Source: an uncultured Planctomycetales bacterium (GTDB taxonomy: Bacteria > Omnitrophota > Gorgyraeia > Gygaellales > Profunditerraquicolaceae). From it: DNA of 64,000 nucleotides. The notes under the pieces are model-generated. The model was given only the letters and a program-made list of their open reading frames with translations, was not told the origin of the DNA and did no database searches. Position 1 is the stretch's first letter, and every line of letters begins with the position of its first letter. Both the position numbers and the translations under genes were made by a program. This document shows, piece by piece, positions 2,603-41,399 of the stretch. Location of the stretch: NCBI GenBank assembly GCA_964427405.1, contig CAYRUB010000001.1, forward strand, positions 157,884 through 221,883, given 5' to 3'.

Positions 2603-3076
2603 TTATTTCTTTCCCCTACATTTGTCACATAAACCGTAGAATTGAATAAGATGATTGGTGATTTTAAAGTTATATTTCTGCCCCAATCCCTTTTCTGTCT
2701 GATTAAGCAGCTCAACTTCCTCATCAATAAAATCAGTATAGTCAATCACCTTATTACATTGCGTACATACCAAGTGATGGTGATGATGCGTTCCTTTAGG
2801 GCCTTCGGCAAATTCATATCGTGCCCGGCCATCTCCAAAATCAAGCTTATAGACCATGCCGAGGTTTGATAATACATCCAACGTCCGGTAAACAGTAGTC
2901 AGTCCTACGCTGGGATACTTTGGATGGAGCTTCATATATATATCTTCGGCGCTCAAGTGGCCTTCGGTTTTAGACATAATATCGAGGATGGCATCCCTGC
3001 CAACAGTAAGCCTATACCCACAGCCTCTGAATTTTCCGTGCCACCACCCCTGTCCTCTACATTCGCCTCTTGGCAT
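2603..3076 (-). CDS. fur: Fur family transcriptional regulator (Fur/Zur/PerR)
   Basis: 157 aa. DNA-binding helix RDAILDIM...SAEDIY, GLTTVYRTL, HHHHHLVCTQC and C-terminal CDKC metal sites. Confidence 0.8.
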   Translation of the reverse strand: MPRGECRGQGWWHGKFRGCGYRLTVGRDAILDIMSKTEGHLSAEDIYMKLHPKYPSVGLTTVYRTLDVLSNLGMVYKLDFGDGRARYEFAEGPKGTHHHHHLVCTQCNKVIDYTDFIDEEVELLNQTEKGLGQKYNFKITNHLIQFYGLCDKCRGKK

Positions 3077-3084
3077 ATATCTCC

Positions 3085-3103
3085 TTAATGAAAATGATTT
3101 CCA
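3085..3103 (-). promoter_or_regulatory. Fur-box-like autoregulatory site in the fur promoter
   Basis: TTAATGAAAATGATTTCCA lies between a TTGACA-17-TATATT promoter (about 3110-3136) and the fur RBS. It is a 19-mer almost identical to the one at 2560-2578. Confidence 0.45.
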
Positions 3104-3150
3104 GTTTCAAATATACACTATACTGCTATTCTTGTCAAGCTTTTTCTTAT

Positions 3151-3492
3151 CTAATGTTCGCTTGGCAGTATTAAGACGCCATTTTCGAACCATAGATCAA
3201 TCTTATTTATCGGAAAATCCGTCCACTCAATCTTCTCCCGATAGAGCTCATGGTAATTGCCGTCCTCGCACACCAGGACTGCCGATCTATCCTCATTGAC
3301 CTCAAGCTTCCAGGTGCCGAATTCCTGTAAGTTCTTTTTCGCTCTTGTCGTGAGTAGTATCTTATCAATTAGCCAATATGCGCCGCCCACTTGCGCGACG
3401 TATTGAACCCCATCGGTGTAAAGATATCCGCTTAGATGTTTGTACCAATGCTCTGTGCCGCTAAATTGCCTTAATTCATTTACCGTTAACAT
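3151..3492 (-). CDS. DUF6876-like protein (plasmid leading-region-type small protein)
   Basis: Start at MLTVNELRQFSGTEHWY..., which has an AAGGAGGG RBS and the TEHWY/LYTDGV/GAYWL pattern recalled for DUF6876. The ORF-track N-terminal extension is rejected. Confidence 0.4.
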   Translation of the reverse strand: MLTVNELRQFSGTEHWYKHLSGYLYTDGVQYVAQVGGAYWLIDKILLTTRAKKNLQEFGTWKLEVNEDRSAVLVCEDGNYHELYREKIEWTDFPINKIDLWFENGVLILPSEH

Positions 3493-3704
3493 TTTAAACC
3501 CTCCTTGGTAATACAGGAAAAATAGCAGTTCCTGCAATCGTTATTATTTTCACTTGAGCATTTCTCACAAATAGGATCTTTGTCCATAGAAGCTATAGAT
3601 CGTAGCAACAGCTTCTCAACCACCACAGTCATTGGCCTTCCCTGTGCCTGCTTTAACCTATAAAGTGTCTTAATCATTGTTTCGCTTAATATTGGGCTAT
3701 ACAT
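3486..3704 (-). CDS. hypothetical small Cys-rich protein
   Basis: 72 aa, GGAGG RBS, CxxC...CxxC pairs (CEKC, CRNC). Tightly packed with flanking small genes. Confidence 0.3.
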   Translation of the reverse strand: MYSPILSETMIKTLYRLKQAQGRPMTVVVEKLLLRSIASMDKDPICEKCSSENNNDCRNCYFSCITKEGLKC

Positions 3705-3826
3705 TCTTGCCTCGCCTCCTCTGGTTTGCCTGCAACCTCAACCCATAACACGCCATCAATTACCACCCAATCCTGGATTTCGCTCCAGCTTGTTTCCTTC
3801 GTTAATTTGTCCTTTTGTATCCACAT
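3686..3826 (-). CDS. hypothetical 46-aa protein
   Basis: ATG at 3826 preceded by an AGGAGG RBS (MWIQKDKLTKETSWSEIQDWVVIDG...). Below the ORF-track size cutoff. Overlaps the start of the neighbouring gene. Confidence 0.2.
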   Translation of the reverse strand: MWIQKDKLTKETSWSEIQDWVVIDGVLWVEVAGKPEEARQECIAQY

Positions 3827-3839
3827 TTTTCTATTCCTC

Positions 3840-4043
3840 CTATTCTTCGTTAGGAAACATCATCGTAATGACGCCTCCATCGTTTACTACCCAAACCTCT
3901 ACTCCGGCAAACCAGAAAACCTGTAAACTAAGCAGGCTTGGATCATGTTCTTTTCTTGCGTCAACCTGCTGCCAGATTCGTTCAATCTGACCCATGGTTA
4001 ACCTTTCCGATACTTGATCTGTAATCTTTTTGATTTCCTGCAT
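3840..4043 (-). CDS. hypothetical protein (translationally coupled, TAATG overlap)
   Basis: 67 aa. Its ATG overlaps the stop of the upstream gene. GGGAGGTGA RBS. Confidence 0.35.
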   Translation of the reverse strand: MQEIKKITDQVSERLTMGQIERIWQQVDARKEHDPSLLSLQVFWFAGVEVWVVNDGGVITMMFPNEE

Positions 4044-4336
4044 TAGAAATCACCTCCCTCATCAAGCAAATCCTGATGCTTCTCAACAAAAGATTCTAAA
4101 GTTTCAGAACCATTTGGTTTAAAGCCTTTAGCCATAAGTTTATAAACGTTCTTCATTAGATTTCTTTCTTCCCAGAGAGCGGATAAGCCGAATGCCTGCT
4201 CCGGAAGATCCTCTTGATACGTTCTGTATTGAGAATCTCGGCTGCTTTGATACCTTTCCATACAGGCATCCGCGCGTAAGACCCCATCCTCAAATTTTTC
4301 GTTTTTCTTTAGTATTTCTTTTTTTACTTGGCTCAT
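4043..4336 (-). CDS. hypothetical protein, first gene behind leader copy 1 (starts MSQVK)
   Basis: Start at 4336 is fixed by conservation of GGAGG-N5-ATGAGCCAAGTAAAA with the copy at 8158. The upstream part of the 172-aa ORF-track entry is leader, not coding. Confidence 0.45.
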   Translation of the reverse strand: MSQVKKEILKKNEKFEDGVLRADACMERYQSSRDSQYRTYQEDLPEQAFGLSALWEERNLMKNVYKLMAKGFKPNGSETLESFVEKHQDLLDEGGDF

Positions 4337-4700
4337 GTGAGCCTCCTTTCTTTTGACGCCTAAAAATCCAAGCCCAATGATTTGAAGTGATTTCTGAGGC
4401 AAACCACAGAAATCACGGTCTTTTGTCAAGAAAACAGGTAAGCCCGAAAGGAGCGAGCGATAAGCGAGAGAGTTTCCTGGAGTCCTTGAGAAAAATTGAG
4501 ACTCCCCGAAGGGGCAGAATGCTTCTGATACCTTGCATCTTGAGGCAGACCACAAGTGCAAGGTAGAGATGAATTATTCTCAAGGATTTTCTTGCACAAA
4601 AGTCAATCTTGGGCTATTTTTACGGCGGAGAAGAAGAAAGAGGCGTAACTTGAAGACAAAGAAAAACAGAAAAGAAAATTTGAGGATGGAGAGAAAAGCG
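4337..4700 (-). promoter_or_regulatory. structured ~360-nt leader element, copy 1 (novel; RNA leader or ssDNA-promoter-like)
   Basis: About 80% identical to 8159-8525. Hairpins at 4387-4416 and 4529-4565 have stems that differ from copy 2 but stay perfectly paired, with a conserved loop TGG(T/G)(T/C)TGCCT. The 5' segment (about 4634-4643) is complementary to the RBS (4342-4354). Confidence 0.5.
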
Positions 4701-4754
4701 CGGAACCGTGGAAAGGCTGGAATTCTTAGCTATCCGCTCTCTGAAACGCTGCCT

Positions 4755-4949
4755 TTATTTGGGCTGATTTAAAATTTTCTTATTTTCAAACCCCTTTGCC
4801 CGGTATTCGATTATGTGGTAATGAATTGAGCCTTCTGCATCAACGTATCCAAGCGTTATATCAGCCATTTTGATATCGCTGTCCAAAGTCAAGTCATCGA
4901 AGTTTTTAATCTGCCTGTGTAATTCCCTGAACCAGTTATCGACTTTCAT
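4755..4949 (-). CDS. hypothetical protein
   Basis: 64-aa ORF with an AAAGGACGGG RBS. Lies between leader copy 1 and IR-L. Confidence 0.3.
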   Translation of the reverse strand: MKVDNWFRELHRQIKNFDDLTLDSDIKMADITLGYVDAEGSIHYHIIEYRAKGFENKKILNQPK

Positions 4950-4990
4950 ATTTCCCGTCCTTTCTTTTAATTAACTTCTTAAAATTATCT

Positions 4991-5136
4991 ATTACCCCCA
5001 AGCACTTAAAGCTCACGGCGGGCGGTGGCCTACGAGGCGCCTTTTTCAACAACCCTCTCGAAGGCTACCGCACGCCAGTCCCAATCAAAATCCACCAAAC
5101 CACCCAACCAACAAAACCCTTTAATCAGGGCGGGGC
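4991..5136. repeat. 146-bp perfect inverted repeat, left copy (IR-L)
   Basis: Base-for-base reverse complement of 39534-39679. About 55% GC in a ~40% GC context. Ends 19 bp from the JAB gene stop. Confidence 0.9.
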
Positions 5137-5155
5137 GAATTTAGCTAAACTATAC

Positions 5156-5962
5156 TTAGCTTCCGGCTGGTATTTGCAGGCGTCCTTTCTCTTCCGGGTA
5201 ATTCTTGACGTATTTTGCTATTTTTTCGCAGGAAGAACATATATCAGCTCCATTGCAGACTTCGCAAAAAGGAAGCACTCCCTGGATATTTAAGCCAGCA
5301 GTTTGCTTGCAGGTCTTACATTTGAAAGTTTCACACGCCTGACAAGCCAAATACGGCATACCCATGTGAGGACAATTTTCACAATCAGCTGTTTGGCAAA
5401 ATTCACAGGGATTTTCCTCATCTTCAAATTGTGAAGATGCCTCCGGCAATAGCTCTCTTGTTCTTTCGCTTATCTTTGAAAGATCAATCCCGGGCAGTTC
5501 AATTAATTGAAGCTGAATTTTTATATAGCCAAAACCATTACAGGGGAGTTTTATCCTTTTCGTGGCAATGCTGCCTTTTGCATTAGCGATGACGATGCTA
5601 TAAGTATAGAGATTTCTGGCATGGGCGTCGTCTTGCGATGAATGGAACGCCCCCATATCATGGTGCGAATGGATTATCCCGTCTCCTCCTAATTCCTCTT
5701 TGAATTCGCAGTCAACTGAACCTACTTCCTGCTTTGGGATCTTGAAGCTGGTTATGGTGTTATCTTTCACCCAGAATACCGCGCCCCACTCCTTATCCCC
5801 CATGCGCTGGCTGATATAAGTCCATTGACTCCAGATACTCCAGGGTATATTTAGGGTTTCTTTATGGTCATGGTCGCTGCAAAAGCCGCATTCACCGTAA
5901 TTCTTTATCTTTACATCTAAAATATTGCTTCTCTTTTCTGTAGCTTGCTCTAAAGTAAACAT
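5156..5962 (-). CDS. JAB/JAMM (MPN+) metallopeptidase with C-terminal multi-CxxC zinc ribbons
   Basis: HSHHDMGAFHSSQDD matches the JAMM motif HxHx7Sx2D exactly. The tail carries more than 6 CxxC pairs (CEFC, CENC, CQAC, CKTC, CEVC, CSSC). Confidence 0.8.
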   Translation of the reverse strand: MFTLEQATEKRSNILDVKIKNYGECGFCSDHDHKETLNIPWSIWSQWTYISQRMGDKEWGAVFWVKDNTITSFKIPKQEVGSVDCEFKEELGGDGIIHSHHDMGAFHSSQDDAHARNLYTYSIVIANAKGSIATKRIKLPCNGFGYIKIQLQLIELPGIDLSKISERTRELLPEASSQFEDEENPCEFCQTADCENCPHMGMPYLACQACETFKCKTCKQTAGLNIQGVLPFCEVCNGADICSSCEKIAKYVKNYPEEKGRLQIPAGS

Positions 5963-5963
5963 T

Positions 5964-6890
5964 TTATTTCCCTCCTTTCGCTTTTAGCCATTTTTTAAGG
6001 GCTTCCAACAGTTTTGAATCGGTGATTTCTCCTGTTTCAATCTCACAAATTATCCAGTCATATTCATTATTCTTTGCTTTTTCTTTTATATCTTTTATCT
6101 CATCATCGCTGTAATGTTCATCACAATCAGGGCAGTATCCGTAATCAGAGCCGTCAGGATCAATCCTTGAGCAGTCTTCACAGTAACCATAACTGTCAGG
6201 TATGTGTTCTTCGATGTTATCCAGGATGTTTCCTTCGCCTTCGTTTCTTGCGTCATCTAGGATTTTGGGGCAGATATGAGTTGAGTGCTGGATATGAAGT
6301 TTTCCCAGATCATCCATAAGGCAAAGTTCCTTGTATGCCCTTGAGGATATTCCTGCCGCAGCTGCAAGCACTGCCGGTATTACCCAGGAAGGCGTTACTG
6401 TATAACCCTGTTCTTCTTCTGCATCCTTCAAGGAAAGCGGGAATGTCTTTGAGACATTCAAGATTGTACCGTCATAGCCTATTCTCTGGTAGTTAAGATC
6501 ATTCTTCTTGCAGAAAGCACATATTATCTGCTGGCTTTTTAAATTATCCGTGCAGCAGAATATGTCGCCTCGCAAAATCTGGCAGTCTATTGGCTTTTCA
6601 ATACGTGAATCCTGAATCTCAATCCTTATTCCTTTTCTCACCTGGCAGATGAGTTCTTTCAAGGCTTCCGCTTTCTTTTTGCCGACAGCTTTTTCTTCTA
6701 AGAGAAGCCTGTTCAAGTTGGATACTTCAACTATGTCAGAATCAATTAAAATCAACTCTTCTACTCCTGACATAGCAAGAAGAAGCGCAGTCCAGAAGCC
6801 TGTCCCGCCACAACCGACAATTGAGGCGATTTGCGGAATATTTAAACCTTCTACTAAGTTCTGTCTTTCGTAAATAGCAAGTTCTGGCAT
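5964..6890 (-). CDS. ThiF/MoeB-type E1-like adenylyltransferase
   Basis: IVGCGGTGFWTALLLAMSGVEELILIDSDIVEVSNLNRL is the Rossmann/adenylation motif. C-terminal CEDC...CPDC zinc site. No rhodanese domain. Confidence 0.85.
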   Translation of the reverse strand: MPELAIYERQNLVEGLNIPQIASIVGCGGTGFWTALLLAMSGVEELILIDSDIVEVSNLNRLLLEEKAVGKKKAEALKELICQVRKGIRIEIQDSRIEKPIDCQILRGDIFCCTDNLKSQQIICAFCKKNDLNYQRIGYDGTILNVSKTFPLSLKDAEEEQGYTVTPSWVIPAVLAAAAGISSRAYKELCLMDDLGKLHIQHSTHICPKILDDARNEGEGNILDNIEEHIPDSYGYCEDCSRIDPDGSDYGYCPDCDEHYSDDEIKDIKEKAKNNEYDWIICEIETGEITDSKLLEALKKWLKAKGGK

Positions 6891-6902
6891 ATTTCTTCTC
6901 TC

Positions 6903-7499
6903 CTATATGATTGACTCAATTAAACCCTCATCGCTTAATTCTTTGAATTTGCACAACACATCTTTGTCTTTATTTGACAAAATGTTCCAAAGAGTTGAGT
7001 ATGTCTTAGGCAGGATCACAGTACCCAAAGATTCAAGGTTTATAACCCGGAACGACTTGATTATTTTTAGACAGGCTTCCTTTAAAAGCCCTAAGGATTC
7101 AGGATTAAGGTATTGGATTTCACCGGTGCAGATGGTGTGCCCCTTATCGGTCAATCCAAGATAGTGAAAACCTATCTCCGGTTCTGATACAAAAGCTATA
7201 AAGCAGCCTCTCTGGTCATAGATGCCGTAAATCTTAAAGGGATAGTATTTGATAGGCGTCTTTAGAAAATAGGTTTTATCCTTATAATAAAGCTTGTCTA
7301 TAAGCAGGAGGCCAGAATAGCCCTCTATAAGCATATCGTCTTCCTTTATCATGCAGCTATAGCCTCCGGTAAAGGGAACCGTAAAGATGCCTTCCTTCAG
7401 GCCTTGGACAAATTCCCGCCAAGAGGTATCAATTTTTTCGATAAGGGTTGATTTCTTTTTAGCTTTAACGATCAATTCTGTATCCATCATTGCTTTCAA
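6903..7499 (-). CDS. putative E2-like (UBC-fold) protein
   Basis: 198 aa between the Ubl and E1 genes. HYLGLTDKGHTICTGE resembles the E2 H-x-N...G-x-I-C active-site region. AAAGGAG RBS. The assignment rests on motif and position only. Confidence 0.35.
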   Translation of the reverse strand: MKAMMDTELIVKAKKKSTLIEKIDTSWREFVQGLKEGIFTVPFTGGYSCMIKEDDMLIEGYSGLLLIDKLYYKDKTYFLKTPIKYYPFKIYGIYDQRGCFIAFVSEPEIGFHYLGLTDKGHTICTGEIQYLNPESLGLLKEACLKIIKSFRVINLESLGTVILPKTYSTLWNILSNKDKDVLCKFKELSDEGLIESII

Positions 7500-7560
7500 G
7501 CTCCTTTAAGCTTTAAGAGAGGGAGAAAAAGTTTCTCTCCCTCTCTTTTTAGCTTTTTTT

Positions 7561-7797
7561 CTAGCCGCCTGCTTTGACGTATCTTTCCACTTCGATATCG
7601 TGGCCGTCAAAGGTCGCAGGCAGGTTGTCGGTAGAGGTAACCTCTTCGCCGTCTACCAAGATGGTAAAGGAGTCAATGCCTTTTTCCTGCAAGAGGCGGG
7701 TTAAGGTGTCCTTTACGGCATCGCCCTTTTTTACCTCGAGCTCTTCTCCTGCTATTGTTATCTTTGTCTTTTCGTTTTTCAGTTCGTTTAAGTTCAT
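7561..7797 (-). CDS. ThiS/MoaD-like ubiquitin-like beta-grasp protein ending in Gly-Gly
   Basis: 78 aa. ...ILVDGEEV...FDGHDIEVERYVKAGG* has the typical ThiS/Ubl core and a C-terminal diglycine immediately before the stop. Confidence 0.7.
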   Translation of the reverse strand: MNLNELKNEKTKITIAGEELEVKKGDAVKDTLTRLLQEKGIDSFTILVDGEEVTSTDNLPATFDGHDIEVERYVKAGG

Positions 7798-7855: not shown

Positions 7856-8158
7856 TTAAGCCTGGTAGGCTGCAAGAACCACTTCTTGCAATTCATTTTT
7901 TGCCTCAGGCGTTAAGAATTGGACGGTATCGTAATACTTACCGTCGCCAGCTAAATGGGATGGCATAGCTGCGAACAGCCCGCCCTCTTTTTTAGCCATG
8001 ACCCTGATGCCTTTGATTAAAACCGCGTCAGCGACTTTAATGTCAACAAAGGCCTTCAGGGAGCTTTCGTCTTTTTCGACTTTATAAACTCTGGCCACTT
8101 CAATCATGGTTTTCACCTCCTTTCGATTTGTTTTTTGTTTTGTTTTTACTTGGCTCAT
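7856..8158 (-). CDS. SpoVG-like protein, first gene behind leader copy 2 (starts MSQVK)
   Basis: IRVMAKKEGGLFAAMPSHLAGDGKYYDTVQF resembles the SpoVG core (IRVIDG..GLFVAMPS..DG..RDI..P). The N-terminal 17 aa are an extension that begins with the leader-encoded MSQVK. Confidence 0.55.
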   Translation of the reverse strand: MSQVKTKQKTNRKEVKTMIEVARVYKVEKDESSLKAFVDIKVADAVLIKGIRVMAKKEGGLFAAMPSHLAGDGKYYDTVQFLTPEAKNELQEVVLAAYQA

Positions 8159-8525
8159 GTAAGCCTCCTTTCTTTTGACGCCGGAAATTAAAACCCAAGA
8201 ATATGAAGTATTTTTCCAGGCAGCCCAGAAAAATACGGTCTTTTGTCAAGAAAACATGGAATGCCCGAAGGCAAACGACGCAAGGAGTGAACCTTCCTGG
8301 GAGTCCTTTGGAAAAATTGAGACTCCCCTATAGGGGCAGAATGCTTCTGATAGCTAAAAAGCCTTTCCGAGGCAGACCACGAAAAGGCTTTTTAGATAGA
8401 GATGAATCTTCCCAAAGGATTTTCTTGAAAAAAGTCAGGATTGGGTTATTGTAGGCGGATAAAAAGAAAGGAGGATTACGTGACGACAAGAGAAAACAAA
8501 AGACAAGGAAGGAAGTAACTGATTG
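8159..8525 (-). promoter_or_regulatory. structured ~370-nt leader element, copy 2 (novel)
   Basis: Hairpins at 8208-8236 (GTATTTTTC/GAAAAATAC) and 8356-8393 (AAAAAGCCTTT/AAAGGCTTTTT) carry the conserved TGGNNTGCCT loops. The 5' segment 8462-8474 AAAAAGAAAGGAGG region is complementary to the RBS region 8164-8182. A CCCC-TATA-GGGG hairpin plus T-run lies mid-element. Confidence 0.5.
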
Positions 8526-8712: not shown

Positions 8713-9366
8713 TTATCCTTGAAATTGACTCTGCTTGTACTCAGACTGGAAATATATTAATGGGACTATCCGCATAGCTTCAAGGATCTTTGGTCCGTGG
8801 CATTTTTTAAGCCTTTTTCCCGAATTGCATGGGCATATCTTATCTCGACTATATTCTCCAGAGGCTAATATTTTAAGAAATTTCTGAGCAGCAGTAAAAT
8901 CATTGGTATTAAAGAACTCACAATAAAATTCTATAACCCCTCGTCCATAATGTGAGCGCTCACCAAACGGCATATGGCCTGTTTTTTTATTGAAACAAAA
9001 GGAGAAAAGAAACGGAATCACTAAAAACTCAACAAATCCAATAAGGGTTTTACATTTACTGAATTTTATCCAATTATCTACTGGCGTGCCTAAACATAAT
9101 GTATCGTTTGTGTAATGATGAAAATCGCTCGGTATCCTTCCCCCCATTTCTTTAACTGAGGGCATCAGATCTGGGTAGCTAGACGGGATCGCGATGAATA
9201 ACTCAAAACCATCTTGGATTCTTACTTTTTCGAATTCGGAAGAAAAACCCAGGAAACCAAAAATATAATAATTATCATCGATATGCTTAAGGCTCAAACC
9301 TGTATATTTCTCATGAAGTTCTTGAAATTGTTTCTGAATAATATCGTCATAACCAATACTCGCCAT
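8713..9366 (-). CDS. E2-like protein with C-terminal SEC-C zinc motif (CBASS Cap2-short-like)
   Basis: Start at MASIGYDD (9366), overlapping the CD-NTase stop by about 20 nt. FHHYTNDTLCLG resembles the UBC HPN...C active site. The C-terminal CPCNSGKRLKKCHG is a SEC-C motif. Confidence 0.45.
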   Translation of the reverse strand: MASIGYDDIIQKQFQELHEKYTGLSLKHIDDNYYIFGFLGFSSEFEKVRIQDGFELFIAIPSSYPDLMPSVKEMGGRIPSDFHHYTNDTLCLGTPVDNWIKFSKCKTLIGFVEFLVIPFLFSFCFNKKTGHMPFGERSHYGRGVIEFYCEFFNTNDFTAAQKFLKILASGEYSRDKICPCNSGKRLKKCHGPKILEAMRIVPLIYFQSEYKQSQFQG

Positions 9367-10546
9367 TGCTGCTCCATGGTTTCGAAGGACTAATTTTAAC
9401 CTCAGGGTAAGATTGCGCAGAAGGCGTTTTCTGGTTACTAGTTCTATAGCCACATTTCTCGAGGACCTTCCCCATGGTTTTAATACCGAATATAACACCC
9501 AGGTACTCAATCATATCCTTAGTTGATGTTTTTGTTAGAGCCTCCTGCAAGTCTTTTTTAATCTTTTTCAACCAATCATAAAAGCTTTTCTCAAGCACAG
9601 GATCATCTAACCATTTATCTGCAAAGTTTTCATCTGGTTCAACAGGATTTCTTATAACTGTTTTAGTCCCATTTTTTTCGATATGTTTATCCATATTATC
9701 TACTATACGTATTAATGCATCAGCTAACCCTAATTCATTTTGATACGCGTGCGCCGCCAAGGTGGTTATAATCATCGAAGTCGGCTTGATCTTAAAATCT
9801 TTTTCGAACATAATATCACGGTGCCGCTTAAGAAGCTGAATAGTTTTCTGTAAGGGAGTTCTAACTTTGTAAACAGGAACGGCTTCTATTGAAGCATATA
9901 AGCGCTTTTCAAGAAGAGATATAGCCCCTTTCTCAAAAATGGTTCTCATTCTAAACTTGAACCATTCTGCATACCCCTTAGGATTAGTTTTTAACCAATT
10001 ATCGTCAATACGATCATAATTACCCAATGTATTATCGGTAAGACAAATACTTGTCTGCAGTAAATTCTCCCTTATTCCTGATTCAAGCAAATGTTTTTTG
10101 TAGGGCACATCTTGCTCTGGAATAGAAGCTAAAAAATCCATATGGAAATGAACATCATCTTCATATTCAATTCTCCAGCAACGTCTTTTATTCTCGGGCT
10201 TACTCTTCATATTTTTAGCAAGAGAGTAATCAGTTAACTCCTTACCGATTTTTTCCTTTAAGTCTTTTTGTGAAATCTCATTTTTAAGATAATTTAAACA
10301 ACATACCAAGTCAATATCATATCTGTCTTCTTCTGATGCAGGTCTAACTGTAGTTCCCAAAAGAAATGAACCTTGCGTATATATTTCAGGATTTCGATCT
10401 TTTAATGATGTACTCTCCTGTAACCACTTTGTTACCGATTCATATCGAAGTCTCGCTTCTTCAAATTGAGAATCGGAAATCTTTAAGGAATCCGCATATT
10501 TCTCTAATACATCATCCAATAATGTCATGCGATTATCTTGCATCAT
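9347..10546 (-). CDS. cGAS/DncV-like nucleotidyltransferase (CD-NTase) of a CBASS system
   Basis: QGSFLLGTTVRPASEEDRYDIDLV gives the GS...hDhD nucleotidyltransferase active site. A third acidic residue lies at HMDF. 399 aa. Confidence 0.8.
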   Translation of the reverse strand: MMQDNRMTLLDDVLEKYADSLKISDSQFEEARLRYESVTKWLQESTSLKDRNPEIYTQGSFLLGTTVRPASEEDRYDIDLVCCLNYLKNEISQKDLKEKIGKELTDYSLAKNMKSKPENKRRCWRIEYEDDVHFHMDFLASIPEQDVPYKKHLLESGIRENLLQTSICLTDNTLGNYDRIDDNWLKTNPKGYAEWFKFRMRTIFEKGAISLLEKRLYASIEAVPVYKVRTPLQKTIQLLKRHRDIMFEKDFKIKPTSMIITTLAAHAYQNELGLADALIRIVDNMDKHIEKNGTKTVIRNPVEPDENFADKWLDDPVLEKSFYDWLKKIKKDLQEALTKTSTKDMIEYLGVIFGIKTMGKVLEKCGYRTSNQKTPSAQSYPEVKISPSKPWSSNGEYWL

Positions 10547-10547
10547 T

Positions 10548-11483
10548 CTAACCTCCTGTGTTATAATCCAAGAATTCTTGGATTTTTTGTGAATTATTTG
10601 TAAAATCTTTTTCTGCTAAAAAGACTAAGTTATTGTACTCATTAGGATCATCTAACTTTAAAGGTTTAGCTGATTTAAAATTAATTCTTAATACCTGATT
10701 TTCCTCAAATAAAAGCTTAAGCATGTTGGTAGTTGTTTGAGACTGCAAGCTAAGAAGCATACCAATAAATTTTTGTCGACCCCACCTTGCCAAGAATCCC
10801 CATCCTAAGAACTTTTTCCACCATCGGTCTGACTGCGAATAGAAATTTTCCCCTTCGCCTGTGCCAATTGACAAAATCATTAGATTATTTATATTCTGAC
10901 CAAGACGACGCTTAGCTTCAATAGCCGCAATAAGAGCCGGATTATTTGCCCATAATCCTCCATCTGCTAAAAGAAAATTATCCATATAATAAGGATCAAA
11001 ATAGGTAGGGGCGGAACAAGAAGCCAATACTGCTTTATAGACTAGTCTATTAGGATCACGAGAAAAATTTTTATCGTACGAAGATTTAAACACATGAACG
11101 CAGCCATTCCCGATATCAGATGCAGGCAAAACTAAAGGTATGTCAATTTGGCCTAGCTTTCGATCATCACCATAGAGATTTCTTAAGATGTTTTCTAAAT
11201 CCTTATTATCATATCTGCTCACGAATAATCCAAACCAATGAAGAAATCGCTTCTTGAAGATCCGTTGACCATATTCCTTATAAAAATCTAATACTTTACT
11301 CGCAGTAAAGTTACAAGCTAATGATGCCGCGATGATTGCTCCTGTACTAGTTCCGGCTATTAGATTAAAACTTTTTAACCAATCAACACTATATTCTTCC
11401 TCAATGCGTTTTAATATATAAGCTGCATAAACACCACGATAACCACCACCGTCGATTGCTAAAATTTTAAATATTTTATCCAT
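10548..11483 (-). CDS. patatin-like phospholipase (CapV-type CBASS effector)
   Basis: DGGGYRG oxyanion motif, GTSTG nucleophile elbow and DGG catalytic Asp. Sits directly upstream of, and 2 nt from, the CD-NTase. Confidence 0.85.
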   Translation of the reverse strand: MDKIFKILAIDGGGYRGVYAAYILKRIEEEYSVDWLKSFNLIAGTSTGAIIAASLACNFTASKVLDFYKEYGQRIFKKRFLHWFGLFVSRYDNKDLENILRNLYGDDRKLGQIDIPLVLPASDIGNGCVHVFKSSYDKNFSRDPNRLVYKAVLASCSAPTYFDPYYMDNFLLADGGLWANNPALIAAIEAKRRLGQNINNLMILSIGTGEGENFYSQSDRWWKKFLGWGFLARWGRQKFIGMLLSLQSQTTTNMLKLLFEENQVLRINFKSAKPLKLDDPNEYNNLVFLAEKDFTNNSQKIQEFLDYNTGG

Positions 11484-13377: not shown

Positions 13378-13434
13378 GGAAACTCCTTTCTTTTGTTATG
13401 AAAACAACTGTTCTCAAAACAAATTGTTAAAGCT

Positions 13435-13681: not shown

Positions 13682-14317
13682 TTACTCCTTCCTTAAATTA
13701 GGTATAGTTGCTATAACAACACCTTGAATCTGAAAATCATCAGTTAAAATAATTGGTTTGTTTTTTTTATTGGAAGATTTTGGCTTTAAAATAATCATAT
13801 TGGGAGCGAGGTGAAACTCTTTAATTGTCGCCTCGCCATCAATTAATGCAACAACTTTATCTCCTTCATTAGCTGTTGGCTGCTGTCTAACTAACACAAG
13901 ATCGCCTTCATTAATTCCTGCTTTATCCATCGAATCTCCTCGCGCATGCAATAGATAATATTTTGCCCCTGGCTTTGCGAGAGAAGTAGAAACAGAAATA
14001 AACCCTTCTATATTTTCTTCTGCCAACATTGGTGCCCCACAAGCTACAACGCCAACCAAAGGAATATTAATGGTTTGAGCATGCATAGAACCAAGATCTG
14101 GATTCAAAACGAGGTGATAATCTCCGTCTTCAAGCTTTTTTATCACACCTTTTTCTTGAAGTTGCTCAAGAATAACCTGAATTGACCGGGGTGATTTGTA
14201 ACCAAGATCAACCATCAATTCCCTAATAGAAGGAGCTCGAGAACGATGCATAAGCCAATTTCTAATATGACGGATAGCCTCGATTTGCCTTTTTGTAAAC
14301 GTATTTTCGTTCTTCAT
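13682..14317 (-). CDS. lexA: LexA repressor (S24 self-cleaving peptidase)
   Basis: N-terminal wHTH, VVACG cleavage-site-like motif, ARGDSM and GDLVLV...K catalytic Ser/Lys motifs. Confidence 0.85.
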   Translation of the reverse strand: MKNENTFTKRQIEAIRHIRNWLMHRSRAPSIRELMVDLGYKSPRSIQVILEQLQEKGVIKKLEDGDYHLVLNPDLGSMHAQTINIPLVGVVACGAPMLAEENIEGFISVSTSLAKPGAKYYLLHARGDSMDKAGINEGDLVLVRQQPTANEGDKVVALIDGEATIKEFHLAPNMIILKPKSSNKKNKPIILTDDFQIQGVVIATIPNLRKE

Positions 14318-14667: not shown

Positions 14668-15408
14668 TTATCCAGCAAGATTACGTTCAATCTCTGCTAT
14701 TAGTATCTTTGGAAACCCCTTTATAATCATATGCTGATTGACAGGAAGAAAGGTTTTAAGCTCTTGTCTGAAATCAATCCTCCCGGATTTGACAACCTTT
14801 AGAATCTTTGCCTTTAATTGTTTATCCTGTATAAATACTTCCTTAAAGGCCATGCGGCTACGAAGAATAAAATAAAGATCGTAGAAATCCCGCGCCTTTT
14901 GGCGCGTAAGACAGGCTTGGATTTTTTCGGTAATAAGAATCTCTTCTTTAAGATGAATAAGCGTATAGGACACAACAAGGTCGGATTGGATGAGTGCCGC
15001 TGCCCCTAACCCCTTTTTACCAGGCCGTAAAGAAACCTCTACTTGAATCCGGCTTTTATACTCACTAGTATTAAACTGGAATATAGCGAGGTATCCGCCG
15101 GATGTACTTTTTGACTCAATAATCTCAGTTTGGATACCTTCCATTTCTATCTTAGTAAGGGCTCCTTCCATTAGGGTTTCGATACCTTTGATCGTAATAT
15201 TTACTCCGGTAAAATCTAAATCTTCCGAGAACCGCGGACTCTGCCAAATGATCCGCAATGCAGTGCCTCCCTTAAAAAGCAGACTATCGGAACCCTTTTC
15301 CTGATAAAGCCGAGAAAGAAACAGCTGCTGAAAATATTCCCGCACGACATTATCTATTGTCGTCTGCCATGTTTGAGCTAACTTTTGAACTTGTCTTTTT
15401 TCAATCAT
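14668..15408 (-). CDS. AbiEii/AbiGii-family nucleotidyltransferase toxin (type IV TA), possibly C-terminally truncated
   Basis: LFKGGTALRIIW...SEDLDF motifs. At 246 aa it is short for the family. Confidence 0.7.
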   Translation of the reverse strand: MIEKRQVQKLAQTWQTTIDNVVREYFQQLFLSRLYQEKGSDSLLFKGGTALRIIWQSPRFSEDLDFTGVNITIKGIETLMEGALTKIEMEGIQTEIIESKSTSGGYLAIFQFNTSEYKSRIQVEVSLRPGKKGLGAAALIQSDLVVSYTLIHLKEEILITEKIQACLTRQKARDFYDLYFILRSRMAFKEVFIQDKQLKAKILKVVKSGRIDFRQELKTFLPVNQHMIIKGFPKILIAEIERNLAG

Positions 15409-15998
15409 AAGATATCCTTAACCAGTTTTATCAAGCCCTTTTTGCCAAAAAGTTTTGCATATTCTATTACAGATTTTTTCTTTATGTCGCGGACATTAAG
15501 ACGCTCATTAAGAGTTTTTCGATTAAGACTAACAAAATAAAGGTAATCTGCGAGGGCCTTTTCCGGTTCGGCCATAAGAACAGTCATATCCCCTATCTTC
15601 TCTGTTCTATAGCCGCGATAAGCTGGTTTTTTAATGTGTGAATAAGTAAAAGACTTATTATTAACAACAAATTCCCGGGTAATCCGGGTTGTCACTGATG
15701 TTATTGTGTAAGCGAATTCAGGAATAATGCCATAATGGGAGAGGGCGTATTCAAAAGAGATGTAACTAGGCGCATAAAGCCTATTGGCAATAGCTTCATC
15801 TCTTGGCTGGTCAATTCTTAACGCATAAAGCCCATTTCTTACTTTAAGAAAAAGGTCATCGCAGTGATCCTTAATAAACTCCTGCGTCGCACGCAAAGAG
15901 ACACCAAAAACTCTCTGGAAGTCCGATGGAGAAAACAAACGGACTCCTTTCGCCTGAAGATGCTGCTGGACATATATTGGTTTAAGTTTTCGCTCCAT
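15405..15998 (-). CDS. AbiEi-family antitoxin/transcriptional regulator
   Basis: 197 aa, 4-nt overlap with the toxin gene. N-terminal wHTH-like region typical of AbiEi partners. Confidence 0.65.
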   Translation of the reverse strand: MERKLKPIYVQQHLQAKGVRLFSPSDFQRVFGVSLRATQEFIKDHCDDLFLKVRNGLYALRIDQPRDEAIANRLYAPSYISFEYALSHYGIIPEFAYTITSVTTRITREFVVNNKSFTYSHIKKPAYRGYRTEKIGDMTVLMAEPEKALADYLYFVSLNRKTLNERLNVRDIKKKSVIEYAKLFGKKGLIKLVKDIL

Positions 15999-17531: not shown

Positions 17532-18821
17532 TCATTCCTCCTCTCCCTTACTTTCAGATACGGGTAGATACATCTCCTGCTTATCCTGCTTTTCAGTAGT
17601 TTCATCGAAATACGAAGTAGTACCGTCATCGTTTATAATGGTGTTGAGTTTCTCTTTCTCTGATTCTGATAAGATACCAGACATGGCTTCGTTGTAGTCT
17701 TTGTAGATCTGTCTTTCCTCTTTAAATCTTTCTAACTTTTCCTTCAGGTAATCATAATCCCTCTCAAACACGCCTCTCTGCACATCATCCAATCCTGGCG
17801 CGCGCATAGCTTCCAACAGGTCATCCATTGCCTGCCTGCATTGAGATATAGTTTTAAAATAAGCTATGTCAGAAGATAGCTTGGAAACAGCAATATATTG
17901 TTTTGCCTTAGGCATTAAGGTGATGTTTCTGATCTGCTCTTCTGTCACCGGGTTATTAGGCAAAGATAGCTCTTTTAAAGAGTCATTAGATAATGTTTTT
18001 GAATTCAAGTATCCATCCGTAAGGGAAAACAGCTTATTAGAGGTATCAGTTCTAAACTCATCGTTTACTTTGTAAATGGATTTTTCTCCCTTATTGTTTT
18101 CAATCTGGGATGCAGTAATTGTGGTTTCACCTACCACTGACTTAACAAAATCTTTCCTGTCATCAGGGATACTTATCTTTTTAAAGATATCGGAAAGCAC
18201 ATTAATCTTACCTCCCTGTGCCAAGGGAATGCCTTCGGCATTCTTCAGGAAGGCAAAAGGGTCTTTATTTTCTTTGCAAGCTTTAAGAGCGTTGTCTATA
18301 TCCAAACCCGTACCGACCTTTTCTTTAACACACTCACTTTCGCTTTTCTTCCTTAGCTTATCCATGTATTCACCGGCTGCCTTCTCGATGTCTTCGCACT
18401 GGGCATACCTTAAGCCTAAGCGCATATTTGTCATGGCATTAAAATGCTTGATGATATCAGCTAAAGTCGGTGAAACATACTCCAATAATAGCATGGGCGC
18501 AGCTGCCATGGCTTCGCTGGAGATACCTTTCATATAATCCGCCAGAATCTGCTCTGAAAGTACGCTATTAAAGCTTGAGGCAAGGTCAAAACCGCTGCAT
18601 CCTTTTGAGCCGCTAAGAATAGAATAACCTACTCCCGGCTCATCAGGCGGGACATTAGGATGATAATCAATACCTCCGCGGTAATAGAATCCGGTCCTAT
18701 CTTCGGAAATAGCGCTATCAATGGTATAAAGGCTAGAGGCATCATCTTTAGAGAAGATATCGGCATAGCTTATATGTGTTAGAGCCAAAATGAGAATTAA
18801 TAATATTAGGACTTTCTTCAT
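17532..18821 (-). CDS. traH: TraH-like F-type conjugative pilus assembly protein
   Basis: Signal peptide, about 430 aa, C-terminal coiled coil. Sits at the TraH position in an F-like gene order. Confidence 0.45.
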   Translation of the reverse strand: MKKVLILLILILALTHISYADIFSKDDASSLYTIDSAISEDRTGFYYRGGIDYHPNVPPDEPGVGYSILSGSKGCSGFDLASSFNSVLSEQILADYMKGISSEAMAAAPMLLLEYVSPTLADIIKHFNAMTNMRLGLRYAQCEDIEKAAGEYMDKLRKKSESECVKEKVGTGLDIDNALKACKENKDPFAFLKNAEGIPLAQGGKINVLSDIFKKISIPDDRKDFVKSVVGETTITASQIENNKGEKSIYKVNDEFRTDTSNKLFSLTDGYLNSKTLSNDSLKELSLPNNPVTEEQIRNITLMPKAKQYIAVSKLSSDIAYFKTISQCRQAMDDLLEAMRAPGLDDVQRGVFERDYDYLKEKLERFKEERQIYKDYNEAMSGILSESEKEKLNTIINDDGTTSYFDETTEKQDKQEMYLPVSESKGEEE

Positions 18822-36493: not shown

Positions 36494-38761
36494 TCATCCC
36501 TCCTTTGGTTTATTGTCATATTCAAACGGGCTTGCGATAAGCCTGTCTTTTACCTTTTTATCAAATAAAAACTCGTGATTTGCGATTACCGTGAGTTTTT
36601 CCCTTAAGAAAATAACACTCTTTGAAAACGGCAGCCTTAAAAACACATTCTCTGAAATGTAATTCTTAACCGCAGTACGGATATTTCCCTGGGCGGATCT
36701 TAAACCGTCGAGCTTGACTCCTGCTTTATCATTGCTTATATTATCCACCTGAAGTACAGTTTTATCCTGATAGGTGGTCTGTCCAGTTTTATCAGACCAG
36801 AACCTTGCGTCAAAAGGATCCTCCTGCATAAAAATTACTTTGGTTGCGGTATTGGTAAAAATCGCATTCTCAAATGCTTTCGATACATTGGATAGGTTTC
36901 CCCGCGACTGATTGGACAGCACAAGACAAAAATTAGCGCTCCTTACTTTAGAGATTACATCCACGAAGTGAGAACAAGCTAAATTCTGGAACTCATCGAT
37001 AAAGATAAAAAACGGTGGATCGGTTTCCTTACGGAATACAGCCTGTGACTTAAGGTCAATAATAAGCATCCTACCTATTGCTTCAGCCAAACGCGTATTC
37101 ACCTGGCTCTTTAGGGCAAAGAATGCCACATCGCCGTTTTTGATTACTTTGGCTAAATCCAGTTCAGCGCGGTTTATCACATCAATACCGGCAATCCAGG
37201 AGACTGCTGCCAAGAGCCCCTTAACTTCCTGTGTACTTACATCCGTCCTTTCTAAGAAGGCGGGATTCTCCAAAGCCTCTTTGACCGAAAGGAAATTTAT
37301 CTCCTTGTTTTCCTGAATTTTTTCCTTTAATAATCCGATGAAGGCCATTGCCTGCACATTAGAGTAAAAACCAGCCGGGCCCTGGTAAATAAGCTCTAAG
37401 GCAGTCATAATCCTGTCGACCTTGGAATGAATATCGCCTGATGAAAGCGGATTATACCCAATTGAGGGTTCATTAGGATCAATGCTGAAATAATAAAATT
37501 TCTTGCCCGCTTGCCTCGCTCTCTCCTGAACGTACTTCTTAAAAACCTCGTCTCCCTTAAAATCTATAAAGCAGCAACCTCTGCCTTTTTCTATAGCCTG
37601 CCTGCTTAAAGGAAGTATCACTAGGGAAGTTTTTCCGCCTCCTGTGGAGCCTAATACGTGCAGATGGCGGTTAAGGATATTTTCTTCTACAACAACATCC
37701 TGCTTATCATCTGAGACAGCCAAAAAATATTTGTCCGTCTTTGCGTACTGATTCAGTTTTTTGTTGATATCGAAGTGGACTTTTTTAAATTCAACCGTCT
37801 CGATGGAAAGCTCTTTTCTTTTTTGCGTTTCCTTATCAACTTTTAAGAAGTCCTCTAGTTCCCGCCTCTTGCGCGGCATTACGTGTTTGATTAAATAAAT
37901 AATGCCAACTGCAGTAAAACCGATAACCGACAAGCCAAAAGCTATAATCAAAAATAACCTTCCCTCTTTCATAATAAAACCGTTCCAGAAACTCCAAAGG
38001 ATCACCTGCCAGCCGTCATTACTAAATGCCAGGTTTATGTCATGGTAGCCAATCCTGCCAAACCAATAGGCAAACACCCAAAACAAGTAATAAAACCAAA
38101 GCCAAAAACTCCTTGTTGCCATAACCACAAAGAAAACACCTATCCCTATTAACCCCAAAACGTCATAAGGAAGACCGTTATCTTTAAAGATATTTCCCAT
38201 GGCTCTTGAGACGAGCACCGTGTCAGAGTAGAGCCAGGGGTATTTCTTTTCGAGTCTCTCAAGAAATAAATAAGGCTCCAAAGCCAGAGCATCTTTAGTC
38301 CTGCCTGATTTCTTAAGAAGATCGCTAAGCTCTCTTACTGACAAGCTTCCCAATCTTTTCTTAGGGTTCTTAAGTTCGTAAGCTATGGCCCGTGAATATT
38401 CTCCGGTCATGGCAAAAGTCTTTGGCAGAGCGATATCGCTTCCTGAAGGCGAAAAGTCAAAATTCCACGTTCCGGGCACCTCAAAATATCCGGATACCTT
38501 AAAATAGGTTGAATCCGGATCAGGATTAGCAGCCTCATGTGGCGGCACAACCATAACCAAAGCCTTGCTGCCAGAGATATCTTCTAAGGACGAGCCTAAG
38601 AGACTGATCTTCATAACCACAGGGATATTGTCAAAGGGTCCCAAAATGACACACTTTCTGCCGTAATTAAAACCTACATACCAGCCGAATCCTATGTAGA
38701 AAAGCGGAATCAGTATTAATAACCTTATAAACCTACTCTTTAAACTAAGCGGTTTGTCCAT
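36494..38761 (-). CDS. traD: type IV coupling protein (TraD/VirD4 family)
   Basis: N-terminal TM helices, HLHVLGSTGGGKTS Walker A, FIFIDEFQ Walker B. Confidence 0.8.
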   Translation of the reverse strand: MDKPLSLKSRFIRLLILIPLFYIGFGWYVGFNYGRKCVILGPFDNIPVVMKISLLGSSLEDISGSKALVMVVPPHEAANPDPDSTYFKVSGYFEVPGTWNFDFSPSGSDIALPKTFAMTGEYSRAIAYELKNPKKRLGSLSVRELSDLLKKSGRTKDALALEPYLFLERLEKKYPWLYSDTVLVSRAMGNIFKDNGLPYDVLGLIGIGVFFVVMATRSFWLWFYYLFWVFAYWFGRIGYHDINLAFSNDGWQVILWSFWNGFIMKEGRLFLIIAFGLSVIGFTAVGIIYLIKHVMPRKRRELEDFLKVDKETQKRKELSIETVEFKKVHFDINKKLNQYAKTDKYFLAVSDDKQDVVVEENILNRHLHVLGSTGGGKTSLVILPLSRQAIEKGRGCCFIDFKGDEVFKKYVQERARQAGKKFYYFSIDPNEPSIGYNPLSSGDIHSKVDRIMTALELIYQGPAGFYSNVQAMAFIGLLKEKIQENKEINFLSVKEALENPAFLERTDVSTQEVKGLLAAVSWIAGIDVINRAELDLAKVIKNGDVAFFALKSQVNTRLAEAIGRMLIIDLKSQAVFRKETDPPFFIFIDEFQNLACSHFVDVISKVRSANFCLVLSNQSRGNLSNVSKAFENAIFTNTATKVIFMQEDPFDARFWSDKTGQTTYQDKTVLQVDNISNDKAGVKLDGLRSAQGNIRTAVKNYISENVFLRLPFSKSVIFLREKLTVIANHEFLFDKKVKDRLIASPFEYDNKPKEG

Positions 38762-39518: not shown

Positions 39519-39533
39519 AACAATGCCTTTCTA

Positions 39534-39679
39534 GCCCCGCCCTGATTAAAGGGTTTTGTTGGTTGGGTGGTTTGGTGGATTTTGATTGGGACTGGCGTGC
39601 GGTAGCCTTCGAGAGGGTTGTTGAAAAAGGCGCCTCGTAGGCCACCGCCCGCCGTGAGCTTTAAGTGCTTGGGGGTAAT
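39534..39679. repeat. 146-bp perfect inverted repeat, right copy (IR-R)
   Basis: Exact reverse complement of 4991-5136. Lies 15 bp upstream of the start codon of the Replic_Relax-like gene at 39518, so the repeat is directly upstream of the tra operon. Confidence 0.9.
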
Positions 39680-39787
39680 AAACATACCTAGAAAATAATT
39701 AGCAAAATAATTAGCATACACAAAATCAATAAATTCGCATGTTGCTGCTAATTTCTTTAAAATTAATTTGCGAATTAATTTAACCAT

Positions 39788-41158: not shown

Positions 41159-41399
41159 ATTTCATTACCTCCAATAAATAAACGTGACCTAGCCTATTTT
41201 TTGACCAAACAAAAAAGGCTAAAAAACAAAAAAGACAGCTTAACATCAAACTGCCTTCAACCTCTTGGTATATAAGTATTTAATCCAGTTAATTTGTCTT
41301 GATAAATCTCTTCAAGAAAAGGTAGGATAGTCCTGTGGGAACGGAACCAGCGGTCAACCAAAAGTCTTTAGAAAAACTTTTTTATTCATACTCGCTGGT

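Follow-up and report, generated by a model that had tools for sequence, protein, structure and literature searches.

A conserved hairpin leader ahead of small-gene cassettes in a conjugation-type element of Omnitrophota: a candidate single-strand promoter

We analyzed a 64,000-nt stretch of contig CAYRUB010000001.1 from an Omnitrophota genome assembly (GCA_964427405.1), called the window hereafter, with all coordinates given as window positions. Five small genes, designated A to E, lie in it at one end of a conjugation-type element, behind a conserved hairpin leader. Tentatively, and with somewhat less than even confidence, we read A-E as the terminal cassette of an Omnitrophota conjugative element similar to an integrative and conjugative element (ICE), transcribed from a hairpin promoter on the incoming template strand in the manner of Frpo. 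Frpo is a fold that mimics duplex DNA, with −35 and −10 hexamers, and transcribes leading-region genes from the entering single strand (PMC11541004). The A-E module would be one of several cassettes, each begun by the same leader of about 350 nt.

All five genes are encoded on the minus strand, co-directional and tightly packed behind leader copy 1, as had been proposed in a sequence-only reading of this DNA, and each of them starts behind a strong Shine-Dalgarno sequence, as read from the nucleotides. Gene A (4043-4336, 97 aa; ribosome-binding site (RBS) AAGGAGG) is the first behind the leader and shares a TAATG at 4043 with gene B (3840-4043, 67 aa; RBS GGAGGTG). Gene C (3686-3826, 46 aa; RBS AGGAGG), like gene B of unknown function, is overlapped by 19 nt by gene D (3486-3704, 72 aa; RBS GGAGG), the Cys-rich member of the set with six cysteines. 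Gene E (3151-3492, 113 aa; RBS AAGGAGGG) overlaps D by 7 nt and encodes a full-length DUF6876 protein (PF21781; Pfam E=1.9e-42, 144.4 bits against a cut-off of 27, residues 3-113 on positions 3-117 of the 117-position profile). The cluster abuts the promoter of the chromosomal fur gene, again as proposed: the stop codon of E occupies 3151-3153, and 12 nt further on begins a conventional sigma-70 promoter (TTGACA-17-TATATT, 11/12, 3138..3110, minus strand) that marks the end of the module and serves fur (2603-3076, minus strand; PF01475, E=1.7e-32). The cluster had been drawn up to 4561, because a mechanically called open reading frame (ORF), 4043-4561, runs into the leader; the true start of gene A is at 4336.

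A-E are real genes rather than chance ORFs, since they recur intact in related DNA and their substitutions are concentrated at third codon positions. Together with an upstream 64-aa ORF (4755-4949, minus strand), located between the leader and a repeat resembling an origin of transfer (oriT), they are found in 11-19 distinct related copies. Substitutions at codon positions 1/2/3 number 218/135/418 in A, 164/118/402 in D and 135/82/448 in E. The two shortest genes behind A follow the same trend, with 20/15/58 changes in B (11 related copies, 46-88% identity) and a weaker third-position excess, 26/27/45, in C (15 related copies, 48-74% identity), the counterparts of which are called as genes of 44-46 aa in related loci. 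The 64-aa ORF shows 137/140/343 changes in 13 related copies and occupies the same position in loci L008, L010, L012, L052, L056 and L073 of the fetched set. A separate gene call on another assembly gave the same series of 64, 97, 67, 46, 72 and 113 aa.

Leader copy 1 (4337-4676, minus strand) is a conserved hairpin of about 340 nt. The repeat unit to which it belongs, of about 350 nt, also takes in the RBS, the ATG and the first four to six or so codons of gene A, down to position 4324 (nhmmer span 4324-4676). Leader copy 2 (8159-8505, minus strand) heads SpoVG (7856-8158) and an operon of ubiquitin-like, E1 and JAB genes (5156-7797). The two copies are about 80-85% identical over the reported repeat blocks and share the first codons MSQVK. 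A profile built from these two copies and run with nhmmer on the fetched loci gave 51 matches, with 39 distinct full copies, and a pattern scan of one genome per species (185,579 species) returned 23 stretches, nearly all of them in metagenome-assembled genomes (MAGs) of Omnitrophota. Complete leaders lie directly upstream of, and on the same strand as, a gene of the A family or SpoVG, the latter being the commonest first gene; the few exceptions head other short ORFs or stop at a contig end. Locus L005 carries seven copies within 10 kb. Using blastn at E<=0.01, no match to the leader was found in PLSDB (72,556 plasmids), which we assume to include the F-like and IncI1 plasmids. Rfam had nothing on the leader or on the 147-nt repeat described below, either across the whole window at gathering thresholds or in 4250-5200 at E<=1, and full-text literature searches turned up no description of the leader.

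Three further candidates connected with the leader were rejected. A supposed third copy near 13380 is an RBS-like resemblance at a site that the leader profile does not detect; a hok-like toxin, read as a small antisense ORF upstream of the leader, is not conserved upstream of leader 2 in our reading of the sequence; and an integron attC-like site finds no integron integrase beside it, with the single checked breakpoint (between L005 and L006) falling at the edge of the 147-nt repeat.

The genes behind leader 2 deserve a description of their own. SpoVG has two in-frame starts there, the leader start (MSQVKTKQK) and then a second strong RBS (AAGGAGGTG) followed by a methionine that matches the canonical N-terminus MIEVAR. 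In L010 (5800-6196) the first of these starts is in a different frame from SpoVG and opens an upstream ORF of 27 aa. The leader start codon at SpoVG may therefore represent a short upstream ORF rather than the true N-terminus. The operon that follows (5156-7797, minus strand) resembles a bacterial ubiquitin-like conjugation system. Besides a ThiF/E1 protein (5964-6890) and a JAB peptidase (5156-5962), it encodes two proteins of 78 and 198 aa; the same operon stands behind leader-SpoVG in L008 and L010. The 78-aa and 198-aa proteins gave no family match, and their designation as Ubl and E2 is a guess from position.

Folded as DNA, leader 1 forms a long imperfect hairpin (−73 kcal/mol, z=−10). 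In an alignment of 34 copies, 84.7% of the cells are paired, against at most 57% when the partners are slid by one to three columns, and compensatory change is seen in 39 pairs and 176 cells, values equalled by 1 and 0 of 500 shuffles, respectively. Plain MAFFT alignments of the leaders gave poor consensus structures with RNAalifold. Calculated with DNA parameters, the fold of the template strand is the more stable one in 38 of the 39 leaders, the mean difference from the coding strand being about 8 kcal/mol. The helices common to both strands contain 1113 Watson-Crick pairs, 8 G-T pairs and 7 A-C pairs, an equal rarity of the last two that fits complementarity at the level of DNA better than an RNA that tolerates G-U. 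Both results lean, though weakly, towards an Frpo-like element.

The two strands of the leader also differ in their promoter-like sites. On the plus strand, which is the template for A-E, the distal arm of the hairpin carries TTGCAC (4592-4597) and TATTTT (4615-4620) with a 17-nt spacer, and in the folded strand this pair is aimed at gene A. A site scoring at least 8/12, at the same place and with a spacing of 16-18 nt, is present in all 39 leaders. The −35 variants are TTGCAC, TTGAAA and TTGATA and the −10 variants TATTGT, TATTTT and TATACT, most copies having TTGCAC..TATTGT; leader 2 has TTGAAA-16-TATTGT at 8425..8452, and diverged leaders keep the site despite changed surroundings (TTGATA-16-TATACT, 10/12). 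On the coding strand, 27 of the 39 copies have no sigma-70-like site of at least 8/12 within the leader, and 27 of 36 have none of at least 9/12 in the 250 nt upstream of it, the remainder having such sites at non-conserved positions. Nearly every copy does conserve a coding-strand TTGACA (4424-4429, minus strand) in the block GTTTTCTTGACAAAA, which in the hairpin is base-paired to the TTGCAC arm. In duplex DNA no −10 lies 16-18 nt away from this hexamer, because a local hairpin of about 30 nt (roughly 4388-4417) separates it from the AT-rich, −10-like stretch. This hairpin shows in its loop the motif GTGGTYTGCCTC (coding-strand reading; 4396-4407, minus strand), which has a second copy at 4543-4554 and is displayed two to three times per leader; the stems change on both sides while the loop sequence stays constant, and the loop is likely a protein-binding site on single-stranded DNA or RNA. 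The suggestion of the sequence-only reading that the leader could be a single-stranded DNA hairpin promoter fits a conserved, covarying hairpin with template-strand hexamers in 39/39 copies and no coding-strand site in 27/39; sequence homology to Frpo or the related ssi sites was not detected with blastn in PLSDB.

Under the reading that we favor, the following course of events is proposed. We infer that the plus strand of the window is the one transferred. After transfer, this template strand of the leader would fold into the long imperfect hairpin, setting the distal arm (4592-4620) opposite the proximal arm, which carries the complement of TTGACA (4424-4429). Pairing would rebuild a duplex −35/−10 element with a spacer of 16-17 nt contributed by the opposite arm, and the insert of about 30 nt would be extruded as a side hairpin. 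Host RNA polymerase would then initiate some 20-25 nt short of the gene A start codon and move towards the base of the stem, with the proximal arm as its template; the A-E mRNA made from the incoming single strand would have a free Shine-Dalgarno sequence. Once the DNA is double-stranded, there would be no recognizable promoter, and read-through RNA would fold into the same hairpin and mask the Shine-Dalgarno sequence and ATG; for these two reasons we propose that the genes go quiet in the duplex. Their products would act in establishment, with D perhaps serving as a small regulator that binds DNA and the other four (A, B, C and E) possibly directed against host defense.

The same conserved structure could be viewed as RNA. 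In that case the leader would serve as a long 5' untranslated region, or as a spacer between cistrons of read-through transcripts, and would provide translational control or an RNase III processing site. In its base helix a CCUCUUUCUU tract farther upstream would pair with the Shine-Dalgarno sequence and the AUG of the first gene (A or SpoVG), and its conserved GUGGUYUGCCUC loops would bind a protein such as SpoVG. Several features agree with this: the conserved base helix spans the Shine-Dalgarno sequence, the ATG and the first codons; covarying stems with three constant-motif loops are the pattern of protein-binding RNAs; the commonest first gene encodes SpoVG, a nucleic-acid-binding protein; the co-directional arrangement of the modules makes read-through from upstream operons possible; and the coding strand folds well too. 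We nevertheless consider an RNA function unlikely. No Rfam family matches even at E<=1, no conserved sense promoter exists within or upstream of the leader, the shared helices show no preference for G-U over A-C, an unusual trait in a structured RNA, and the template strand folds better in 38/39 copies. An RNA would also leave the near-invariant TTGACA and the fixed TAxxxT hexamer unexplained.

Named homologs of A come almost all from Candidatus Omnitrophota MAGs; the family comprises 129 clusters in a word-indexed search and 62 representatives at E<=0.001 among 1.84 billion proteins, and no Pfam domain was found in it even with remote members included. The predicted model of A is helical and poor (pLDDT 68), and the fold search with this poor model gave no fold neighbor. 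The A family has a conserved acidic C-terminus, DLLDEGGD(F). SSB recruits partner proteins through an acidic, aromatic-tipped tail, and the tail of A (codons 4043-4066) is reminiscent of it. For gene D there are 57 homolog clusters, the few named ones mostly from Omnitrophota. Its C-terminal cluster CxxC...CxxC (C46, C49, C57, C60) is invariant in 26 homologs, and its N-terminus, in our reading of the sequence, looks like a ribbon-helix-helix domain; Pfam and PDB sequence searches with the protein and its profile gave no match that confirms either the domain or the cluster. Nothing meaningful came from searching PDB sequences with E, with D or with the profiles of A and D. In Pfam, PHROGs, NCBIfam and PADLOC, A-D gave sub-threshold noise only (DUF4125, EF-hand, DUF960). 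Homologs of E likewise carry PF21781. DUF6876 occurs on 106 plasmids (of cyanobacteria, Acetobacter and Piscirickettsia) and in 0 phage records, and its fold search gave an uncharacterized E. faecalis protein as the sole match, with no viral fold among the results. On a conjugative Acetobacter plasmid its neighbors are genes for a ParB-N protein, DUF3085, a TOPRIM primase and a zincin-like metallopeptidase, which we take to be ArdC-like, together with a 5-kb DEAD-box helicase gene; on a second plasmid it lies directly ahead of a ParB-family gene. Full-text literature searches gave no paper on the function of DUF6876 and no description of the A family.

The sequence-only reading had expected anti-defense genes in the cluster. 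None of the recognized establishment or anti-defense genes (ssb, psiB, ardA/B/C, klcA, acr, orphan methylases) is found among A-E by Pfam, PHROGs, NCBIfam or PADLOC, and comparison of the model of E and the poor model of A with anti-restriction and anti-CRISPR folds produced no match. The content of the module is mosaic in relatives, where B is replaced by a 140-aa gene or by RadC, and DUF6876 is present or not; DUF932 is found in neighboring leader-headed modules and DUF2958 beside an integrase in one case. RadC, DUF932 and DUF2958 are known near anti-restriction genes on plasmids and islands. By association only, the gene content fits a plasmid or ICE establishment region. Defense-type cargo beside leader modules of relatives comprises an OLD-family ATPase with a UvrD helicase (Gabija-like), RelA/SpoT and GIY-YIG genes in L005 (13944-18187), and a methyltransferase, SIR2 and GmrSD in L012 (1-3328).

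The conjugation-type element extends over about 3.1-41.2 kb of the window, with all its genes on the minus strand, and has housekeeping genes at either side (fur to the left, purC and pckG to the right). Its transfer genes include TraG_N, a MobC/Replic_Relax-type protein, a coupling protein, pilin, TraL, TraE, TrbI, TraV, TraC/VirB4, TraU and TraH, and its pilus genes a secretin, a type IV pilus ATPase and platform proteins. The coupling protein, with type IV coupling protein (T4CP) domains, is encoded at 36494-38761, after the MobC-like gene. Among the cargo are an AbiE toxin-antitoxin pair, a LexA/S24 protein, a CBASS (cyclic-oligonucleotide-based anti-phage signaling) system, leader 2 with SpoVG and the ubiquitin-like/E1/JAB operon, and the A-E module. 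The module had been described as lying next to a type IV secretion system (T4SS); it does belong to the same element, but the nearest T4SS gene, TraH (17532-18821), is about 13 kb away on the linear map. Of the components that define an ICE, the window contains the T4SS, the coupling protein and a weakly assigned relaxase, and 0 integrase and 0 tRNA genes; no direct repeat of at least 11 nt, as expected of att sites, was found between the two ends of the element. In some relatives a recombinase of the tyrosine or large serine type is encoded immediately upstream of TraG_N; in others, genes for a serine recombinase and an HTH_17 protein directly follow the A module, which in relatives is the final block ahead of xis-like HTH_17 genes and integrases. 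The ends in the window (3100-3150 and 41158-41400) show, unlike those of relatives, no integrase, tRNA target or terminal direct repeat. The element here may be decayed, dependent on functions supplied in trans, or bordered elsewhere. Taken together, real genes that are co-directional with an F-like T4SS, at the end of the element and near an oriT-like repeat, make the earlier description of A-E as leading-region-like plausible, short of any known anti-defense homolog.

In a more conventional interpretation, A-E would be an ordinary regulation and maintenance module (small regulators, partition-like or immunity functions) at the integrase/excisionase end of the element, with no part in early entry or anti-defense. 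The leader would chiefly mark the edge of a module, for example as an insulator, as a promoter of antisense RNA or as a hot spot of recombination that shuffles cassettes. It would account for the resemblance of D to a small DNA-binding regulator, itself an inference, for the xis-like HTH_17 genes and recombinases that adjoin the module in relatives, for the mosaic content behind a constant leader (B, the 140-aa gene or RadC, with or without DUF6876), for three recurrent promoter-like sites that are all antisense in duplex DNA, and for the lack of anti-defense homology. We judge it decidedly unlikely, because it would explain neither the compensatory pairing between arms some 300 nt apart nor why every leader takes in the RBS and the start codon of the gene behind it, and the single breakpoint checked (L005/L006) falls outside the leader, at the edge of the 147-nt repeat.

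A perfect inverted repeat of 147 nt, 100% complementary, brackets the 34-kb segment with the T4SS, CBASS and ubiquitin-like genes. Arm 1 (4990-5136) lies between the end of the JAB gene and the 64-aa ORF, 315 nt upstream of leader 1, and arm 2 (39534-39680) is separated by 15 nt from the MobC-like gene downstream of it. The repeat is built of an invariant CCCCCAAGCACTTAAAG block, an imperfect hairpin of about 19 bp, CA-rich short direct repeats and a terminator-like hairpin, which in arm 1 would serve the upstream operon. We regard it as a candidate oriT. A 90-aa ORF (39515-39787, minus strand) between TraG_N and the MobC-like gene is probably spurious, as it overlaps arm 2. Twenty other fetched locus records have a copy of 72-87% identity at the place of arm 1. 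Within a genome the two copies do not differ, and between genomes their identity is 67-76%.

The MobC/Replic_Relax-type protein (38745-39518, minus strand) has a PD-(D/E)XK-like motif, IPDG...ALEVETRYK, seen by eye. It matches NF041423 (MobC_subf; E=7e-13, 48 bits against 200) and PF13814 (Replic_Relax; 23.8 against 25.3) below their cut-offs, and is a candidate MOB_C-type relaxase. Thirty-five metagenome loci encode this protein, with the repeat directly upstream wherever that region is visible, and the order TraG_N, repeat, MobC, T4CP of the window is kept in 24 of the 28 informative loci. The 41.9-kb contig L006 matches one side of each repeat copy on a 337-kb contig from another sample (L005, L062), with 0 mismatches over 5.5 and 5.9 kb and a switch at the edge of the repeat. 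Assemblies of what seems to be a single strain hence contain the segment in either orientation. Either the T4SS segment of 34-44 kb truly inverts or the assemblers switch paths at the repeat, the length of which is close to k=141; a real inversion would perhaps proceed by relaxase-mediated recombination between the two oriT copies.

As a rule, the relaxase gene enters last (PMC11541004). By this rule, the module would lie on the leading side of the adjacent arm 4990-5136, taken as candidate oriT, and in a circular element it would also be within a few kb of the MobC-proximal arm. Location of oriT and of the transfer polarity had been put forward as a check: a candidate oriT is indeed present near the module, and entry from the adjacent arm would deliver the coding strand, entry from the MobC-proximal arm of a circle the template strand.

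If the nick were at 4990-5136 with F-like polarity, the coding strand would be transferred, and the leader could be an ssi/sso-like site (single-strand initiation or origin) at which RNA polymerase makes a primer for the complementary strand rather than an mRNA. The near-invariant TTGACA of the coding strand would then sit on the non-template arm, an oriT-like arm does lie on the leading side of the module wherever the region is recovered in relatives, many dispersed leaders would suit discontinuous priming, and Frpo itself is reported to have been found as a priming signal (Masai and Arai 1997). This is very improbable, as the primer, made in the direction of the nick, would span no more than about 0.5 kb, A-E would be left without any promoter, the template strand folds better, and an RBS and ATG inside the hairpin would serve no purpose.

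Several observations weigh against transcription of A-E from an incoming template strand. An F-like nick at the adjacent arm 4990-5136 would send in the coding strand, and the template strand would enter early only if the nick were at 39534-39680 and the element had circularized. In L052, L056 and L006, the 64-aa ORF, the leader and the A module diverge from MobC across one repeat, as does the SpoVG module in L072. The best-conserved −35 is on the coding strand and not on the arm that would be the non-template one; the hexamers are weak in most leaders (8-9 of 12); and we know of no precedent for a three-way junction in a promoter spacer, as would form on the template strand here. Two more recurrent promoter-like sites on the template strand, about 29 and about 170 nt in, have no place in the model and would be simply antisense promoters in duplex DNA. 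Taken as a whole, the wobble-pair count (116 against 109) picks no strand. The leader is not specific to anti-defense genes, as it also heads SpoVG and the ubiquitin-like (E1/JAB) operon, and this operon resembles a defense system, which we would expect to be constitutive. A-E themselves match no known anti-defense, defense or phage family in Pfam, PHROGs, NCBIfam or PADLOC, and the suggested anti-defense function finds no support there. Finally, the window is without an integrase, a tRNA and a terminal direct repeat of at least 11 nt.

A bolder version of the single-strand promoter reading, which we hold to be doubtful, would make the leader a previously unrecognized and independently evolved class of promoter, active in single strands only and serving as a phylum-wide cassette head in conjugative elements. 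An inserted hairpin would split its −35 and −10 in the duplex, and only folding of the transferred strand would put them in register. It would work with the T4SS segment of 34-44 kb between identical inverted oriT copies, where inversion or outward nicking would decide which cassettes enter first.

The remaining features of the window are as follows. The CBASS operon (8713-11483, minus strand) comprises a patatin effector (10548-11483), a CD-NTase (9347-10546) and an E2-type protein with a SEC-C motif (8713-9510; PADLOC E2, E=1e-82), and is preceded upstream by genes for a metallo-beta-lactamase and a PGAP1-like hydrolase. Also inside the element are a LexA-type repressor with an S24 peptidase domain (13682-14317, minus strand) and the AbiEi/AbiEii toxin-antitoxin pair (14668-15998, minus strand). 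The chromosomal flank has two riboswitches, c-di-GMP-I (56225-56304, minus strand, 66 bits) and TPP (thiamine pyrophosphate; 57355-57468, minus strand, 58 bits).

To our knowledge, single-stranded-DNA promoters have been shown experimentally only for a few enterobacterial plasmids, and other candidates rest on weak motif matches. The leader family provides comparative evidence of the kind that would show their independent evolution in a distant, uncultured phylum, and it gives an exact sequence for in vitro testing. If the single-strand promoter reading is true, the genes behind leaders (the 97-aa family, DUF6876, SpoVG and others) become candidates for functions in early establishment or anti-defense, DUF6876, a family on more than 100 sequenced plasmids, receives its first functional context, and the otherwise uncharacterized conjugation biology of Omnitrophota opens to study.

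Among known systems, the ssoA/ssoU origins of rolling-circle plasmids are folded single-stranded DNA read by RNA polymerase via promoter-like hexamers in the stem. Compared by description, they differ from the leader in making a short primer, in being non-coding replication accessories and in not being fused to the RBS of a gene. DUF932-KlcA-RadC clusters occur in E. coli CP4-type islands and at ICE ends; the apparent resemblance lies in the RadC and DUF932 genes of leader-headed modules in relatives, both absent from the window.

MOB_C relaxases are PD-(D/E)XK enzymes, and one of them, TraX, binds direct repeats away from nic (PMC12857230). Like the MOB_C systems of pAD1 (TraX) and CloDF13 (MobC), the window has a candidate relaxase of PD-(D/E)XK type beside the coupling protein, and its candidate oriT, like theirs, combines an inverted repeat with a run of short direct repeats. 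It differs from them in model matches below the curated cut-offs and in the two identical, inverted repeat copies 34 kb apart. The anti-defense islands in plasmid leading regions (Samuel et al. 2024, PMC11541004) share with the A-E module small co-directional genes near a candidate oriT, candidate hairpin promoters, a neighboring gene of the S24/LexA type and, in relatives, RadC. In contrast to these islands, the module in the window has no homolog of ArdA, KlcA, ArdC, PsiB, SSB, Acr or a methyltransferase, and the element is chromosomal, with no integrase in the window.

The closest counterparts are Frpo and the ssi sites. The leader, a candidate promoter, belongs to another phylum and has no sequence similarity to them (blastn, PLSDB); its hairpin covers the RBS and start codon, places a three-way junction in the template-arm spacer and displays conserved loop motifs, and it heads SpoVG or the 97-aa family instead of ssb, psiB or ardA. 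In ColIb-P9, ssi1-3 are dispersed, co-oriented copies directly upstream of small leading-region operons. The leader copies are likewise dispersed and co-oriented ahead of small operons, with genes co-directional with tra, and they have the structure of an Frpo/ssi site in that a long imperfect hairpin carries template-arm hexamers 16-18 nt apart, weak in most copies. Like Frpo/ssi of F and of the IncI1 plasmid ColIb-P9, for which this anatomy is published (PMC11541004), the leader would be a duplex-mimicking hairpin of about 300-350 nt with a −35 and a −10.

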